Source: an uncultured Bdellovibrionales bacterium (GTDB taxonomy: Bacteria > Bdellovibrionota > Bdellovibrionia > Bdellovibrionales > JAEYZS01). From it: DNA of 64,000 bases. Both the position numbers and the translations under genes were made by a program. This document shows, piece after piece, positions 42,825 to 50,495 of the stretch (positions within the stretch are counted from its first letter, which is position 1; each line of letters starts with the position of its first letter). The notes below the pieces were generated by a model. That model saw only the letters and a program-made list of their open reading frames with translations, was not told the origin of the DNA and searched no databases. Location: positions 35,958 through 99,957 of the forward strand of contig CAYXYF010000004.1 in assembly GCA_964469265.1 (NCBI GenBank), in the 5' to 3' direction.

Positions 42825-43628
42825 ATGAGCGGAAAATCTAAAAAGAAAACAAAAGACGATTTAGCTGATTTTTTTCTGGGCAACGACCAAACAAAATCAG
42901 TTAAAACAAATGACAAGACATCGGTGTTGGCTCCAGTTGAGGACAACACAAAGTCGCTCTCTGTCAAAAAAGCCACGACAAGCGAAATTAGTAAAAAAGA
43001 TATTTCAAGCGACCCATCACTGTTCTCTTTAGAGGCAGCACTGAAACAATCTGAATATTTGAAGGTTGCGCAGAGTAAGGTGAATTCCTTAGAAAAACAG
43101 ATCGATACGTTAAAGTCTGAAAACGAAGTGCTTTCTGCTTCTGCAATTGTTTTAAAGAAGAAGTATGAAGAGATGACTGCGAAATTTGAATCTCTGCTCG
43201 AGGAACAGCGAGCGAAGATAACTATTTTAACTGAAGACCTTGAACATAAGTCTCATGTTATTGGGGAGCTTGAAAAGAAAAATCATAAAATCCAGAGTAG
43301 CAACGAAGAATTTAAGCTTCTCGTCGACGATAAGTTGCAGCAGGTTCGGGTGAAAGAACGTGAACTTCAAAATCGTCTTGAAATTTTACAACATGAGGGC
43401 GATGTGGTCATCACGAGCAAGGATGAGACTATTCTTGACCTCAAAAAACAAATGGATCAAATGAATTTTGAACTAGATAGTTATAAGGCTCAGAGTAAGG
43501 ATTTAAATCAACAGATTCAAAACCTCAAAGATCAAATTCGCCGTGGAGCGAAGGCTTTAAGAGCAGCTTTGGGTGCGCTTGAACAAGAGAACATCAAGAT
43601 CGAAGAACTTAAGAAAACAGGGACGTGA
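42825..43628 (+). CDS. Coiled-coil protein (first gene of the GGDEF operon)
   Basis: 267 aa. A basic, disordered N-terminus is followed by about 190 aa of heptad-like Leu/Glu/Lys-rich sequence (LEKQIDTLKSENEVL...LQNRLEILQHE...IQNLKDQI). No TM segment or signal peptide. Confidence 0.6.
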   Translation: MSGKSKKKTKDDLADFFLGNDQTKSVKTNDKTSVLAPVEDNTKSLSVKKATTSEISKKDISSDPSLFSLEAALKQSEYLKVAQSKVNSLEKQIDTLKSENEVLSASAIVLKKKYEEMTAKFESLLEEQRAKITILTEDLEHKSHVIGELEKKNHKIQSSNEEFKLLVDDKLQQVRVKERELQNRLEILQHEGDVVITSKDETILDLKKQMDQMNFELDSYKAQSKDLNQQIQNLKDQIRRGAKALRAALGALEQENIKIEELKKTGT

Positions 43629-43636
43629 AGTGAACA

Positions 43637-44596
43637 ATGAGAAATGTTAAAGCGGTTAAAACATTCATCGATAATTTAGGGCGCTTAGAAAAAAGTATTC
43701 TGAAAAGTAAAAGCCCTAAACACTATAAGGAAGTTTTGGAGTTCTTCAGAGATGAGCTTTTAGTTGATCAGGCGTTCATCTGGCGAGAACAAGTTGCAAT
43801 TCCGCAACCTGGAAGAGATGGCGAACCACTGCGACAGAAGTTTTTAGCCATTCACAAGACCTCGTTAGAGGAATTTTCAGTATACTGTAAAAAATTTGAG
43901 CGCGTGAATTTTTCAACCGCCATGCACTTTGATGAAAATCTATTATATATGAAGCTTACGGCAGATAACGGAGAGCATTTTTGCTTTGCAATCAAGGGCT
44001 ACCCTGTCTTTTTAAAAAAGGATGAGGTCTGTGCACATATGTTTGTAAAGCGGATGGCTGGGTTGATGAATATGATCGATACCTTAGATGAAATTCAAAC
44101 CATGAACTTTGAAGATGACGTCACGGGGCTATACAATCAGCGATATTTGAATATTCTGTTAGATCAAGAAATCGAACGGTATAAGAGATCCAATGTTTCT
44201 TTTAGCGTTTTATTTATTGATGTCGACCATTTTAAAATGGTTAATGATAAAAACGGTCATATGGTAGGATCGCAGGTACTCAAAGAAATTGGCCAAATTA
44301 TAAAAAAGAGCGTACGCACCGTTGATTTTTGCTTTCGATATGGCGGTGATGAGTTTTTAACTGTCTTAACTTCAACTACGACCGAGCAAGCAACAGCAGT
44401 TGCAAACAGAATATGTAGAAGTGTGAGAGAAACACCGTTTATTGTCGATGGAAAGAGAGTACAAGTGACTTTAAGTATCGGTGTGGCATGTTTTCCCGAA
44501 CACGCACAGACGAAAGAAAAAATACTACAAGTTGCCGACGAAGCAATGTATTGTGGGAAGAATTTAAGTCGCAATGTTGTCTATTTGGCTAGTTAA
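43637..44596 (+). CDS. GGDEF-domain nucleotide cyclase with Ser at the Hypr selectivity position; N-terminal domain of unknown type
   Basis: FIDVDHFKMVNDKNGHMVGSQVLKEIG...VRTVDFCFRYGGDEF. The GGDEF active site and the RxxD I-site are intact. The residue after GHxxG is Ser rather than the canonical Asp. Confidence 0.85.
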   Translation: MRNVKAVKTFIDNLGRLEKSILKSKSPKHYKEVLEFFRDELLVDQAFIWREQVAIPQPGRDGEPLRQKFLAIHKTSLEEFSVYCKKFERVNFSTAMHFDENLLYMKLTADNGEHFCFAIKGYPVFLKKDEVCAHMFVKRMAGLMNMIDTLDEIQTMNFEDDVTGLYNQRYLNILLDQEIERYKRSNVSFSVLFIDVDHFKMVNDKNGHMVGSQVLKEIGQIIKKSVRTVDFCFRYGGDEFLTVLTSTTTEQATAVANRICRSVRETPFIVDGKRVQVTLSIGVACFPEHAQTKEKILQVADEAMYCGKNLSRNVVYLAS

Positions 44597-45685
44597 GTGA
44601 AAATCATGAGAAGAATAAAACTTGTTGTTAGTGATCTACATGTCGGTGCTGGCAAAGTTCTAGAGGATGGAAACATCAACTCTTTAGAAGAGTTTTATTA
44701 TGATGAGCGTTTTGCCGAGTTTCTTAATTACTACACGACAGGTGAATATGCGGATGCAGAAGTAGAACTCATTCTCAATGGGGATATCTTAAACTTATTG
44801 CAAGTCGATTATCGTGGACACTTTCTTTCAGTTATTACGGAGTCGATAACTGTAGATATCGTAAAAAAAATTGTAGACGGACATCCAATTTTTTTTAATG
44901 CCCTTAAAAACTTTGCAAAAAATACTAAAAACAGCATCACGTACGTTGTTGGTAACCATGATCAAGGTATGCTCTGGCCGCAAGCTCGGGAATACTTAAA
45001 TCTAGTGGTAGGAACAACAATACGGTACCGAAATATTGTTTATTACTTTGATGGCGTGCACATTGAGCACGGACACATGCATGAGCCCGCTAACAGAATT
45101 GACCCGAAGAAATTTTTCATTAAGAAAGAATATCCTACTCCGATATTAAATCTGCCTTTTGGATCCTTCTTTTTCGTAGAATTTGTACTTCGTATTAAGA
45201 AGGTGAATCCCCATGTAGACAAGGTTCGTCCTTTTAAAGCAATGATGAGGTGGTCACTTTTGCAGGAACCCAAGTTCCTGATTATCACTACAGTTAAGCT
45301 TTATAAGTTCATGTTTGACTCGATTTTTTCTTCCGATCCAAGAAAGCGTTACCCATGGAAGCAGATTATAAAGATTTTCTTGGAGCGATCCATCTTTCCA
45401 GATCTGGATGTGGCAGCAAAAAAAATCTTAAAGGATGACAGAGTCCATACAGTAATCTTTGGGCACAACCACGTTTATCGTTACCGCCAGTGGTTGAAAG
45501 GAAAACAATACTTTAATACTGGCACATGGACAGAGTTAACATCTCTTGATGTGGGATCCTTCGGAAAGCTCACTAAATTGACCTATGTTGTTTTGGATTA
45601 CCCTGAAGGTGCGAACCAACCCATGGCTCGTCTTAAGGAATGGAAGGGTTACCACAGAATCCAAGAAGACGTTGACGTCACTTAG
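44597..45685 (+). CDS. Calcineurin-like metallophosphoesterase
   Basis: The ordered motifs SDLHVG, NGDILN, GNHDQG, EHGH and FGHNHV make up the MPE signature. Its GTG start directly abuts the GGDEF stop (alternative ATG at 44606). Confidence 0.75.
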   Translation: MKIMRRIKLVVSDLHVGAGKVLEDGNINSLEEFYYDERFAEFLNYYTTGEYADAEVELILNGDILNLLQVDYRGHFLSVITESITVDIVKKIVDGHPIFFNALKNFAKNTKNSITYVVGNHDQGMLWPQAREYLNLVVGTTIRYRNIVYYFDGVHIEHGHMHEPANRIDPKKFFIKKEYPTPILNLPFGSFFFVEFVLRIKKVNPHVDKVRPFKAMMRWSLLQEPKFLIITTVKLYKFMFDSIFSSDPRKRYPWKQIIKIFLERSIFPDLDVAAKKILKDDRVHTVIFGHNHVYRYRQWLKGKQYFNTGTWTELTSLDVGSFGKLTKLTYVVLDYPEGANQPMARLKEWKGYHRIQEDVDVT

Positions 45686-46608
45686 CGTTCGTTTAACCCA
45701 GTGAGGCGCTCAGCCCTCAAATCATCAATCGTGACATAGTTGTCCGTATATTTTCCGTCCTTCATTTTGAGGTTATGGATATGAAGACCACTGAGAATAT
45801 TTAAAAAATAGGTATGGTAAATATCTTCTTGAAGATAATAGATGACTTCTTTTTCAGTGATCTTTCCTTGAGACTCGAGTTTTAGAAGATCTTTCGCATA
45901 AGGCGAATCAAAAACCTTTGTCTCCTTACTGTAGTTATTTAAATAAGCATCAATGGCAAAGTATTTAAGATACATCCTATGGGTTTCATCGAAGAGAAAC
46001 TTAGCTTGCTCTTCTGTAAGAGGCTTTTGATGTTCTTTGGCCACATGGGTGCCTTCAAAAGCAAAGACGCCTTTTTCAAGAAATATTGTGAGATGTTTAA
46101 AGAGAGGTGTTGGGAGATGAGTTGCGATGTTCTCCTCAAGGGTAAGACGAAGGGGGCTTTGATCTCTAATAGATATATAGTAGTTCGCATAATCCTTTTG
46201 AATTTCGTAGGCGAGGATTCGTTTCTGCACATCAATATTGCCTAAACGCTCATCTAGTTTTTTTGCATCGTTATCTAAAGTTAGTTTCTTGATATTGCGG
46301 TATCGAAAATCGTGTTGAATCAGATCGTCATAGTAGGTCTTATTGGAATTCGTATGCTCAATGCTTTTGGCGGCAATGGTGGCTCGGGCCGCGGGGAAAA
46401 AAATACGCTGATCGACTTCTTTCCATATCATCATACTCAGTGCTGCTGTGAGTGGAATTTGGTAAGAAAGCTTAATAATTTGAGCCTTATGCCGGCTAAA
46501 GAAGGAAGCCTTTTTAGCAAACAAGGAGCCGCAACGGTTGGGTGTCACTTCAGCATGGGCAAAGCATGTCGAAGTGACGAGTAAAAAAATGACAAGCAGT
46601 TTTTTCAT
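45682..46608 (-). CDS. Exported hypothetical protein
   Basis: 308 aa with the signal peptide LLVIFLLVTSTCFAHA. No family recognised. Confidence 0.5.
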   Translation of the reverse strand: MKKLLVIFLLVTSTCFAHAEVTPNRCGSLFAKKASFFSRHKAQIIKLSYQIPLTAALSMMIWKEVDQRIFFPAARATIAAKSIEHTNSNKTYYDDLIQHDFRYRNIKKLTLDNDAKKLDERLGNIDVQKRILAYEIQKDYANYYISIRDQSPLRLTLEENIATHLPTPLFKHLTIFLEKGVFAFEGTHVAKEHQKPLTEEQAKFLFDETHRMYLKYFAIDAYLNNYSKETKVFDSPYAKDLLKLESQGKITEKEVIYYLQEDIYHTYFLNILSGLHIHNLKMKDGKYTDNYVTIDDLRAERLTGLNER

Positions 46609-46616
46609 CTGGATTG

Positions 46617-47210
46617 TTAAGGGTTTCGGAGCTCTCGTCTTATATTATTAAAGGCTTCACTACTGTAGATGAGAACAGCTTCGCCGACGTTAACATCTGG
46701 GCATCTCACTTCCGTACAAAATATTGTGGCAAATGGAACGTAGCCTGGATCTCTTTCATCTAGAGCATTTAGAACATAAATTCTTGATCCAATATCTAGA
46801 ACGAGTAGGAGTTGTCCGCTCCGAACAAGAAACTTCGCAGTTCCGCGCCCCATTCGTTTTGCAATGCCACCTTCAATTTTACTCAGCTCGCGTTTTAATG
46901 CATTAATTCTTGATTGACGAACCTGAGGTGGTAGATCCGAAGAATTCTTTAGTATATCAATCTGAGCGTGAATTGTGGCGATCGCTTTTTCATCGACTTT
47001 TGTGATAAGGCCATTGAGTTGGTAAGCTGCAACTGCCTCAACTGAGCCGTAGATAACTTGTTGAGTAACGGTTTCGCTATCGGCTCGATCGAAACGCTGG
47101 TTTAGCCGTCGCTGGAAGTCATCAATAATTTGGGCTTGTGCATAAGAGAGAGCTAACAGAGTTATTAGAAAAACAATGGGGCCAAGACTTTTGCTTACAC
47201 GAAGACTCAT
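46617..47210 (-). CDS. Exported hypothetical protein
   Basis: 197 aa with the signal peptide IVFLITLLALSYAQA. No family recognised. Confidence 0.5.
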   Translation of the reverse strand: MSLRVSKSLGPIVFLITLLALSYAQAQIIDDFQRRLNQRFDRADSETVTQQVIYGSVEAVAAYQLNGLITKVDEKAIATIHAQIDILKNSSDLPPQVRQSRINALKRELSKIEGGIAKRMGRGTAKFLVRSGQLLLVLDIGSRIYVLNALDERDPGYVPFATIFCTEVRCPDVNVGEAVLIYSSEAFNNIRRELRNP

Positions 47211-48604: not shown

Positions 48605-49525
48605 ATGTCAGCAGATGAAGAAAGCGGCGAAAAGACGAGCGTCGTATCCAGTGAAACTTTTAAAATTAGAATGTCGGAAGCAAGAAATGCTCCGCCCGCT
48701 CTGGTTTTGTTGATGGGGCCTCCTGCGCTTATCGGAAAACAATGGTCCATTGAAAAATCCGAGTATACGATTGGTCGAAGTCCTGATAGCCAAATTTTTG
48801 TAGAAGACCGAAGTGTTTCGAAGCGACATGCAAAGGTGAAATTAGAGGGTGGCGATGTTTATATTGTGGATATCGGCTCTACAAACGGAACGGAAGTTTC
48901 TAACGAGAGAATCCCGCCAGATTCTCTACGAAAGCTTGCAAACAACGAACAGATTAAAGTTGGAAGCGTTATCTTTAAATTCCTTGAACAAGGAAATATT
49001 GAAACCGTTTCCGCACGTTCGACGTTTGATAAAACACAAATTGATCCCTTAACTCAAATTTTTAACAAGGGTGCTTTGCTTTCACAAGGTGAAGAAGTTT
49101 TTAAAAAGGCAAAGATCGCACAGATGTCTTTGTCAGTTATTGTTTTTGATTTAGATAACTTTAAGAAACTAAACGATACCTATGGCCACCAAGCTGGTGA
49201 TTATGTCTTAAAAGAAATGGCCGAGGCTGTTTCGTCTAAACTCATCCGTAAAGGTGACTTCTTTGCACGGTTTGGCGGCGAAGAGTTTTGCCTCATATTG
49301 CTTGGAAGTAATTTGCAAAAAGGCATTGAGGTCGCAGAGCGTATCCGTGCGACAATTGAAAGCCATCCGTTCGTCTACAAAGATCAAAAATTGACCGTTA
49401 CAGTCTCAGCAGGTGTTGCATGTTTAGAGGGGGCAATGCAATCTTGGAATGAGCTTTTTGAAAAAGCAGATCAGGCCTCTTACGAATCGAAGAAAAATGG
49501 TAAAAACCGAGTCTCGACAATTTGA
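48605..49525 (+). CDS. FHA-domain diguanylate cyclase (Bdellovibrio DgcB-type architecture)
   Basis: The FHA region reads YTIGRSPDSQIFVEDRSVSKRHAKV...VDIGSTNGTEV. The GGDEF domain has DLDNFKKLNDTYGHQAGDYVL, the I-site RKGD and the active site GGEEF. Confidence 0.85.
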   Translation: MSADEESGEKTSVVSSETFKIRMSEARNAPPALVLLMGPPALIGKQWSIEKSEYTIGRSPDSQIFVEDRSVSKRHAKVKLEGGDVYIVDIGSTNGTEVSNERIPPDSLRKLANNEQIKVGSVIFKFLEQGNIETVSARSTFDKTQIDPLTQIFNKGALLSQGEEVFKKAKIAQMSLSVIVFDLDNFKKLNDTYGHQAGDYVLKEMAEAVSSKLIRKGDFFARFGGEEFCLILLGSNLQKGIEVAERIRATIESHPFVYKDQKLTVTVSAGVACLEGAMQSWNELFEKADQASYESKKNGKNRVSTI

Positions 49526-50495
49526 ATTTCCACATTTCCTAGAGATCAAGATAGAGCAATTTTTAAAGGCGCTTGGACTATCGTTGCTCGATGACAGGAA
49601 AATTGCAGCAGCAGTACAGCAAATGTCTGACTTCTACATCGAAAACCCAGATGGTTCCACCCCTTGGAATGAAAAGTGGGCTCAGGTTGCTCAGGCTGCT
49701 TATTACTTCCCATTAAATTATTTGCGTGCCCAAGCGGTGATCGACGAAGCGGTACGCGTGAAGTTCTTTACAGATATTAATTCTTTTTGTGAAGTAGGAA
49801 GTGGCTTGGGTGCACTCACGGCTCACCTTAGTGAGAATGTTTCTAAAGGTTACAGTATTGAGGTCGCCGCAACTGCTATTGAGATTTATAAAAGACTATT
49901 TCCAGAATCTCATCTCAACTTTCTTACCAAGAGCTTAGACAAACCTGTGGATCTTTTTGCGTTTTCATATGTGCTAACGGAGCTTCCTGGAATTCCCAGA
50001 GCGGCTTACGAATCAGAAGCGATTTTAGTCATCGAGCCTTCGACCCAGTCTGATGGCAGAAGGCTTATGGAATTAAGACAAGACCTTATTGCGCGCGGTT
50101 ACCAAATGTGGGCGCCTTGCACACATCAACTGGGCTGTCCGCTTCTTCTTCATTCGAAGAGAGACTGGTGCCATGATCGTATTCATTTAAAAATGCCAGA
50201 CTGGTTTTTAAACATTGAAAAGCATTTGAAATTTAAAAACAGGACCGTGACCTTCTCATACCTACTTGCGAGAAAAACCAGCCCAGAGACTTCGCTCAAC
50301 AAGGGGCGGATCGTTGGAGATATGTTAAAAGAAAAAGGAAAAACGCGAATTATGATTTGTCGACAAGACGAACGCGAATTCCTTAGTTGGTTAAAAAAGG
50401 ATAAGTTCGATATTGAACTTCATCGGGGAGACCTTTTAGACCTTGACTTGCCTTTTGACAAAAAGTCCTCAGAGCTGAGGCTTCGGAAGAAGTAG
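49497..50495 (+). CDS. Rsm22-like SAM-dependent methyltransferase
   Basis: SAM motif I-like EVGSGLGALT and the C-terminal Cys/His cluster CTHQLGCPLL...WCHD, as in Rsm22-family proteins. Start chosen at ATG 49497, which overlaps the upstream gene by 29 nt. Confidence 0.5.
   Translation: MVKTESRQFEFPHFLEIKIEQFLKALGLSLLDDRKIAAAVQQMSDFYIENPDGSTPWNEKWAQVAQAAYYFPLNYLRAQAVIDEAVRVKFFTDINSFCEVGSGLGALTAHLSENVSKGYSIEVAATAIEIYKRLFPESHLNFLTKSLDKPVDLFAFSYVLTELPGIPRAAYESEAILVIEPSTQSDGRRLMELRQDLIARGYQMWAPCTHQLGCPLLLHSKRDWCHDRIHLKMPDWFLNIEKHLKFKNRTVTFSYLLARKTSPETSLNKGRIVGDMLKEKGKTRIMICRQDEREFLSWLKKDKFDIELHRGDLLDLDLPFDKKSSELRLRKK

Follow-up and report, generated by a model that had tools for sequence, protein, structure and literature searches.

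This report concerns a gene on the plus strand (43637-44596) of a 64,000-nucleotide stretch of DNA from an uncultured Bdellovibrionales bacterium; this whole stretch is referred to below as the window. A preliminary interpretation, made from the letters only (hereafter the 'sequence-only reading'), had singled out the encoded protein as a GGDEF cyclase in which the aspartate that contacts guanine in canonical diguanylate cyclases is exchanged for serine; the change that defines the hybrid promiscuous ('Hypr') enzymes, which accept ATP as well as GTP and make cGAMP (3',3'-cyclic GMP-AMP). The open reading frame itself is real, encodes 319 residues and holds the strings quoted at the time, FIDVDHFKMVNDKNGHMVGSQVLKEIG...VRTVDFCFRYGGDEF; an identical protein is present in NCBI (P0001; P and L numbers denote homologous proteins and genomic loci, respectively). 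Pfam recognises a GGDEF domain (PF00990) on residues 160-313 (E 2e-44, 151 bits), and a search of NCBIfam with the whole protein returns only the generic GGDEF model TIGR00254 (E 1e-51). The parts of the gene are as follows, with GacA numbering carried over by an offset of +136, taken from the alignment with the GacA Hypr domain (PDB 6D9M).

43637..44596, plus strand: whole gene (open reading frame), encoding a 319-residue protein with a GAF-like domain and a Hypr-type GGDEF domain
43637..44107, plus strand: N-terminal sensor-like domain, residues 1-157; an alpha/beta sandwich with a long terminal helix in the AlphaFold2 model
44108..44593, plus strand: GGDEF catalytic domain, residues 158-319; Pfam PF00990, best PDB match 6D9M
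44138..44140, plus strand: codon for Gln168 at the 'cross-dimer' position (GacA Tyr304; Arg in canonical cyclases), from the alignment
44219..44248, plus strand: D195-V-D197 metal motif and the nucleotide-contact residues N203-D204, positions checked
44270..44272, plus strand: codon TCG for Ser212, the Hypr selectivity residue (PleD D344, GacA S348, Bd0367 S214)
44315..44326, plus strand: primary I-site R227-T-V-D230 (RxxD), five residues before the GGDEF motif
44342..44356, plus strand: active-site motif G236-G-D-E-F240
44408..44410, plus strand: codon for Arg258, the secondary I-site Arg (GacA R393, Bd0367 R260), by the +136 offset from the 6D9M alignment

The selectivity residue and the catalytic domain

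The column in which Ser212 stands had been named beforehand as the point on which the assignment could fall, and the alignments now settle it in favour of that assignment. Aligned by phmmer with solved structures, the domain runs without a gap from TGLYNQRY through to RYGGDEF, such that ghmvgSqvl of the window protein lies over ghdigDevl in PleD, ghntgDeil in DosC and ghlagDevi in 3IGN, and over ghlvgSqvl in the Hypr domain of Geobacter metallireducens GacA (6D9M). As the alignments with PleD and with GacA are both gapless, Ser212 occupies the PleD D344 / GacA S348 column. A single-base error is excluded, since TCG differs from GAY at all three bases; and the second GGDEF gene of the window (48605-49525), which had been put forward as an internal control, does indeed carry the canonical residue (GHQAGDYVL), together with GGEEF as its active-site motif. 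Ser or Thr at this position is uncommon, being found in only 0.17% of GGDEF domains according to the figure from Hallberg 2016, in the form in which PMC9140294 cites it.

A serine does not make a Hypr enzyme by itself. In the 'Goldilocks' model, Ser348 functions only in the company of GGDEF, and the combination of Ser with GGEEF is inactive (PMC6456294); the window protein conforms to this rule, its residues 236-240 reading GGDEF and not GGEEF. Diguanylate cyclases have Arg as the cross-dimer residue, which stacks on the base of the partner, in 94% of cases; in GacA it is Tyr304, and a Y304R exchange there moves the product towards c-di-GMP (cyclic di-GMP), according to the 2019 paper on the GacA structure (PMC6456294). 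In the window protein it is again something other than Arg, with tglynQry (Gln168) lying over tglhnRry in PleD and tglfnYry in GacA; one section of the same paper (PMC6456294 section 13) describes predominant cGAMP production for the Hypr enzymes that naturally have Tyr, Ser, Ala or Gln here, and more c-di-GMP for those with Arg.

The sequence-only reading had listed the GGDEF site, the DVD metal ligands (D195/D197), N203 and an RxxD I-site (RTVD, five residues before GGDEF) as intact, and all of them are. D238 and E239 of the GGDEF motif are also present, as is R258; these correspond to D374, E375 and R393 of GacA, and N203 corresponds to Asn339, each by the same offset. The last of these arginines has a marked effect in GacA, the I-site mutation R393A raising cGAMP 30-fold (PMC6456294). 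Every Hypr feature that can be read from a sequence is to be found in the protein (GGDEF domain, selectivity Ser, GGDEF motif, non-Arg cross-dimer residue and catalytic residues), so that its designation as a candidate Hypr, and thus putatively cGAMP-making, enzyme, made originally on account of the Ser, is also in keeping with the GGDEF motif, with Gln168 and with the closeness of the domain to that of GacA.

This closeness is evident in both sequence and fold. The best PDB sequence match is 6D9M, with E-values of 8.5e-46 to 3e-45, which leads any canonical cyclase by 14 orders of magnitude (DosC, the best of them, scores 2.5e-31 and PleD 1.8e-28); it is also the top fold match (E 9e-20, 43% identity). 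A PDB search with a second protein of the group, the receiver-like ('Rec-like') Hypr protein of a member of the Bdellovibrionia (L020), again places 6D9M at the top.

Around 27 full-length orthologues of 310-328 residues, with 50-67% identity, come from metagenomes and from metagenome-assembled genomes (MAGs) of Bdellovibrionota. Across an alignment of 34 sequences the invariant positions comprise S212, N167-Q168-R169, the DxD residues, N203, R227, D230, GGDEF and R258. Among the 120 best database homologues, GHxxGS is present in 118 and the cross-dimer Gln in 111, and each complete homologue has GGDE[F/Y], with GGEEF in none. Conservation of the Ser, the Gln and the GGDEF motif across the family argues that the Hypr signature is a selected, clade-wide trait as opposed to a sporadic one.

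Other residues were seen at the selectivity position in the course of these searches. Thr (GHLxGT), accompanied by a cross-dimer Thr (LYNTR), occurs in three MAGs of Bacteriovoracaceae/Oligoflexia/Bdellovibrionales (L016, L030, L043); a receiver-containing deltaproteobacterial protein has Asn (GHPPGN; L029), and Val is found in one further locus (GHVLGV; L065).

The N-terminal domain and its probable relation to GacA

The sequence-only reading had seen no receiver signature in the first ~150 residues. This holds good, as there is no Pfam receiver match and the predicted topology is not that of a (beta/alpha)5 fold; moreover, the upstream gene stops 8 bp before the start codon, which leaves no room for a receiver. 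Residues 1-150 match no Pfam family, and the domain likewise has no NCBIfam or PDB sequence match. Supplied with the family alignment, AlphaFold2 models the full-length protein with a predicted local distance difference test score (pLDDT) of 87, and residues 1-157 alone with a pLDDT of 88 and a predicted template modelling score (pTM) of 0.80. The predicted order of elements is two helices, strand, loop, strand, helix, three strands, a short helix and a long helix (H-H-E-E-H-E-E-E-H-H); residues 51-68 form a poorly ordered basic loop in the model, and the 27-residue helix 130-156 runs straight into the GGDEF domain. Trp49 is the sole invariant residue in the alignment of the domain.

Comparison of the isolated N-terminal model against the PDB with Foldseek returns weak matches (E 4e-3 or worse, template modelling (TM) scores of 0.45-0.60), which include GAF domains (KdpD, PtsP, PDE6C and phytochrome) and LuxR-type autoinducer-binding domains (RhlR, LasR and SdiA). 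The full-length model aligns across both domains with Dcsbis, a cyclase of the GAF-GGDEF type (4ZMU, 349 columns), and with a phytochrome-GGDEF protein (5LLW). In sequence the domain is an orphan: hhalign gives a probability below 1% against the canonical GAF domains of acidobacterial GAF-Hypr proteins, and when the N-domain profile is run exhaustively with HMMER against 1.84 billion proteins, no more than 6 cluster representatives are recovered. (A word-indexed search with the same profile gave one weak match and missed members of the family; it is superseded by the exhaustive search.) The earlier wording, 'GAF-like or novel', was a reasonable one, given a predicted fold that weakly resembles GAF and LuxR ligand-binding domains and a sequence without relatives of that kind; a fair description, on the strength of the models, would be a GAF-like fold with a novel sequence.

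Clues to the origin of the domain come from longer homologues. Many of these, including most of the relatives in Bdellovibrionota, are proteins of 455-470 residues from Bdellovibrionales and Oligoflexia (P0033-P0120, for example P0063 and P0070; also L086 5607-7001), in which Pfam recognises the GGDEF domain only. Their first ~120 residues are receiver-like, with the acceptor Asp lost (for example ...ELIVHSAH...), and these 'long forms' look like pseudo-receiver versions of GacA. The GacA orthologues of Desulfuromonadales (L058 and L062, 459-465 residues) have a receiver recognised by Pfam (PF00072), a middle region of ~170 residues, which we term X, and a Hypr GGDEF domain; in hhalign, the first ~300 residues of the long forms match the receiver and X of these orthologues from end to end (probability 98.4%, E 1e-14, 274 columns). 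The N-domain of the window protein in turn aligns with X of the long forms over 152-153 columns, the E-value being 3e-16 with a target set that includes the 445-residue intermediates P0029-31 and 2e-4 (probability 48%) with one that omits them. BLASTP of the window protein against L062 gives a match that reaches upstream of the GGDEF domain and into the last strands of the middle region.

A neighbour-joining tree of GGDEF domains, computed without support values and with PleD and DgcB as the outgroup, places the short forms as sister to the 445-residue pseudo-receiver clade, inside the Bdellovibrionota long forms, with the GacA orthologues and the acidobacterial GAF-type proteins outside. Short and long forms also occupy a common syntenic slot (coiled-coil, GGDEF, LpxH-like, PGI, FHA-GGDEF). 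The simplest reading of the profile comparisons and synteny is an order of descent in which Rec-X-GGDEF, as in GacA, would have given rise to pseudoRec-X-GGDEF, with loss of the acceptor Asp in Bdellovibrionota, and this in turn to X-GGDEF, as in the window protein. Homology between its N-domain and the middle domain of GacA, traced through the intermediates, would make the window protein a GacA-family enzyme without the receiver. Loss of the receiver in this lineage fits with the dispensability of the phospho-acceptor in GacA itself, whose D52A mutant retains full function both in vivo and in vitro (PMC6456294).

The genomic neighbourhood

Two genes closely flank the Hypr gene on the same strand.

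42825..43628, plus strand: coiled-coil protein gene, 267 residues, ending 8 bp before the GGDEF gene; weak coiled-coil-type matches only
44606..45685 (longest open reading frame from 44597), plus strand: LpxH-like metallophosphoesterase; Pfam Metallophos, E 5.5e-6

The coiled-coil gene fills the slot upstream in related loci (L001, L003 and L086) and in B. bacteriovorus (L084), where its product (L084 5692-6999) has 435 residues with a long acidic, Ser/Asp-rich N-terminal extension. Orthologues place the start of the metallophosphoesterase at ATG 44606, 9 bp past the GGDEF gene, and not at GTG 44597. This calcineurin-type protein, labelled LpxH by JGI, shows 61-87% identity between members of Bdellovibrionota, and sequence searches of NCBIfam and the PDB give no match to it; some 120 residues lie between its HGH and GHNH metal motifs, as read from the sequence, and may form a lid. 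With no terminator-like site on the plus strand between 41822 and 45685, the metallophosphoesterase is probably co-transcribed with the Hypr gene.

A pairing of cyclase and metallophosphoesterase as 'writer' and 'eraser' in one operon, the latter being a dedicated cGAMP/cAMP phosphodiesterase, was considered and rejected as unsupported. The metallophosphoesterase is more strongly conserved than its neighbour (74-87% identity, against 57-66% for the cyclase in the same loci), is found phylum-wide at 61% identity or above, keeps its place in B. bacteriovorus, which has no cyclase gene there, and carries the LpxH label. We treat it as a housekeeping-type neighbour.

The wider gene order is RlmN, PfkB, coiled-coil, Hypr GGDEF, metallophosphoesterase, PGI, FHA-GGDEF and Rsm22, and is kept in L001 and L003, which have the short form, and also in L086, which has a 464-residue long form. 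The corresponding block of B. bacteriovorus consists of coiled-coil, metallophosphoesterase, PGI and FHA-GGDEF genes, with no GGDEF gene in the Hypr slot. The window protein would belong to a large Bdellovibrionota clade from which, to judge by this gene order, B. bacteriovorus has lost its member at this locus. The second GGDEF gene of the window, introduced above as the control (48605-49525, plus strand), is the orthologue of B. bacteriovorus DgcB (Bd0742), an FHA-GGDEF protein (6HBZ, E 5e-88 over 275 residues); with its canonical GHQAGD and GGEEF, it follows PGI in all related loci, B. bacteriovorus included.

Two minus-strand open reading frames, 45682-46608 (308 residues) and 46617-47210 (197 residues), lie between the metallophosphoesterase and PGI genes, and the N-terminus of each is hydrophobic and resembles a signal peptide. 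Since L001, L003, L084 and L086 lack them at this place, they look like an insertion specific to the lineage. The longest reading frame for the Rsm22-like methyltransferase (49449-50495, plus strand) shares 77 bp with the end of the DgcB gene, and its true start is probably further downstream.

Proposed mechanism and comparison with known systems

Bringing these findings together, we propose that the window protein is a GacA-family Hypr cyclase that makes mainly 3',3'-cGAMP, is subject to feedback at its I-site, takes its input through the N-terminal domain and has lost the receiver; as a whole, we regard this reading as probable. Two GGDEF domains, one from each subunit, would each take one purine nucleoside triphosphate (NTP), with Asp238 positioning Mg2+ at the distance that Ser212 requires, Glu239 acting across the dimer as the general base, and Gln168 standing in place of the guanine-favouring cross-dimer Arg. 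It is Ser212, the GGDEF geometry and Gln168 that lead us to expect mainly cGAMP from ATP and GTP, with c-di-GMP and some c-di-AMP (cyclic di-AMP) as side products, as extrapolated from the sequence and from the work on GacA; we think it likely that cGAMP is a major product. Feedback inhibition would operate through the intact I-site (R227xxD230 together with R258), with c-di-GMP, the inhibitor in GacA and GacB, as the most likely effector. Input may come by way of the 157-residue GAF-like alpha/beta domain, with helix 130-156 probably serving as a stalk in the dimer and setting how the two half-sites are placed relative to each other.

Several points weigh against this proposal. The product spectrum, both of the protein and of its clade, is deduced from residues, and the step from Gln to mainly cGAMP goes back to a review sentence, in the section of PMC6456294 cited above. 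The product ratio of Hypr enzymes depends on ATP:GTP and on the state of activation (PMC6456294; PMC9140294), so that, in a promiscuous enzyme, the in vivo product could shift to c-di-GMP. An Rfam scan of the window finds no c-di-GMP or cGAMP riboswitch, and no recognisable cGAMP effector is encoded in the window. As regards the N-terminal domain, the GAF-like assignment is weak, no Foldseek match falling below E 1e-3, and a direct profile comparison with the middle domain of GacA gives a probability of less than 1%; the putative homology of the two domains runs along a transitive chain through the long forms, in which one link has the E-value of 2e-4 noted above.

The shift in product is the substance of one alternative, namely that the enzyme is functionally a diguanylate cyclase, which makes mostly c-di-GMP in the cell, adds to the pool of the DgcB orthologue and yields cGAMP as a minor product. 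Hypr enzymes do give all three dinucleotides in vitro, the D74E phosphomimic of Bd0367 leans to c-di-GMP (PMC9140294), and two Ser-bearing Hypr enzymes still gave more c-di-GMP (PMC6456294); the canonical DgcB-orthologue gene lies 4 kb downstream in the same conserved block, and the lack of a visible cGAMP-specific effector in the window is in line with such a role. However, those two c-di-GMP-leaning enzymes have, in the section of the paper that describes them, a cross-dimer Arg, where the window protein and 111 of its 120 nearest homologues have Gln; and an invariant combination of Ser212 and Gln168 would be hard to explain under selection for guanine, for which Asp plus Arg is the near-universal solution. 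We consider this alternative unlikely.

Still another main product, be it c-di-AMP or a dinucleotide with another purine, could be envisaged, as c-di-AMP is also among the products of Hypr GGDEF enzymes, which take other purine NTPs as well (PMC6456294), and as the cross-dimer Gln differs from the Tyr of GacA and the Met of Bd0367; but c-di-AMP is undetectable or minor for characterised Hypr enzymes at equimolar ATP/GTP (bioRxiv 10.1101/600031), nothing in the window sequence excludes guanine, and we hold this to be very improbable. The chance that the protein is catalytically dead, and serves by way of its I-site as a receptor for dinucleotides, appears smaller still: degenerate GGDEF receptors do exist, and the RxxD motif and R258 would allow for binding, but all of the catalytic residues (GGDEF, DxD, N203, E239) are present and invariant, and the domain scores 151 bits against Pfam GGDEF.

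Should the proposal of a receiver-less, mainly cGAMP-making enzyme be correct, GGDEF-made cGAMP in predatory Bdellovibrionota would not be limited to the receiver-type Bd0367; a second lineage, related to GacA, would be found widely in the phylum, its metagenomic homologues running into the thousands, whilst the model species B. bacteriovorus would be without it; and the window protein would represent a natural receiver-less version of GacA, pointing to the GacA middle domain as the place to seek the activating signal. For annotation, a selectivity Ser, a non-Arg cross-dimer residue and GGDEF, not GGEEF, together provide a simple, checkable rule for marking probable GMP-AMP cyclases among these proteins, all of which at present go under 'diguanylate cyclase' or 'GGDEF domain-containing protein'.

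We also speculate, and here the odds seem to us to be against it, that throughout the GacA lineage it is the orphan GAF-like domain that truly serves as the module for signal input. A diverged form of it would then be common to Geobacter GacA, lying between receiver and GGDEF domain; the receiver would be dispensable throughout the lineage, as hinted at by the active D52A mutant, by long forms without the Asp and by the window protein without a receiver; and the domain would perhaps bind a small ligand, in a putative pocket around the invariant Trp49. Were this so, the X-GGDEF protein would be the simplest system for finding the activator of GacA-type cGAMP synthases, and predatory Bdellovibrionota would possess a second cGAMP pathway, independent of Bd0367, that B. 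bacteriovorus has lost.

Set against what is known, the conceptual gain is incremental, because publications already cover the class of enzyme, the switch in its selectivity and architectures without a receiver; the Hypr GGDEF class, the Asp-to-Ser switch and the Bdellovibrio example Bd0367 are described in PMC6456294 and PMC9140294. One premise of the sequence-only reading is wrong on this account, namely that characterised Hypr enzymes are receiver-GGDEF proteins, and the new regulatory class that it drew from this finds no support in the form given. A Hypr enzyme of the GAF-GGDEF type has already been characterised in Myxococcus xanthus: GacB (MXAN_2643), which cAMP activates by way of the GAF domain and c-di-GMP inhibits (bioRxiv 10.1101/600031). 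GAF-Hypr proteins are also common in Acidobacteriota. In a scan of a genome collection, in which the matches listed include the generic FRYGGDEF and do not include the full-length orthologues, 65 of the 80 best matches listed are Hypr proteins of ~320-360 residues with a cross-dimer Ala (LYNARH) and GHLxGS, mostly from Acidobacteriota (loci L009-L083; for example L069, Silvibacterium bohemicum, NZ_LBHJ01000002.1). Their N-termini, where read, begin like a canonical GAF domain, as judged by eye, and the distribution of these sequences suggests a wide occurrence in that phylum of cGAMP signalling by GGDEF enzymes.

Of the characterised enzymes, GacA (GSU1658 / Gmet_1914, 6D9M) likewise has the Ser (Ser348), GGDEF, Asn339, Glu375, RxxD and an Arg of the R393 type; it differs in its cross-dimer Tyr, where the window protein has Gln, in possessing a receiver and in its host (Geobacter, as against Bdellovibrionota), and the Rfam scan of the window shows no GEMM-Ib riboswitch near the window gene. 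Bd0367 (DgcA), which controls the gliding exit of B. bacteriovorus from prey, belongs to the same phylum and shares the Ser (S214), the I-site Arg (R260) and a length of ~318 residues (PMC9140294); as described there, it has a receiver with acceptor D74 and a cross-dimer Met, in place of the GAF-like domain and Gln168. Bd0367 and the window gene are not positional orthologues, since the corresponding slot in B. bacteriovorus holds no GGDEF gene. (PDB entries 6ZXB, 6ZXC and 6ZXM, considered for a time as Bd0367, were rejected as such, their descriptions in the fold search being those of Leptospira DgcR.) Canonical cyclases (PleD, WspR, Dcsbis and phytochrome-GGDEF) have the same GGDEF fold, with a TM score to target of 0.9 for isolated domains, and the same stalk-helix layout, but pair Asp at the selectivity position with a cross-dimer Arg where the window protein has Ser and Gln.

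GacB, compared here by its description only, is like the window protein in joining a sensor-type domain to a Hypr GGDEF domain, with no receiver and with the I-site present; its N-terminal domain is by description a cAMP-binding GAF domain, whereas that of the window protein matches no GAF profile. The new part is a modest one, a probable member of the GacA lineage that lacks the receiver and has a putative, GAF-like input domain of orphan sequence: without a receiver it does not fall into the GacA/Bd0367 subtype and, being only loosely GAF-like, it can hardly be assigned to the GacB type either.

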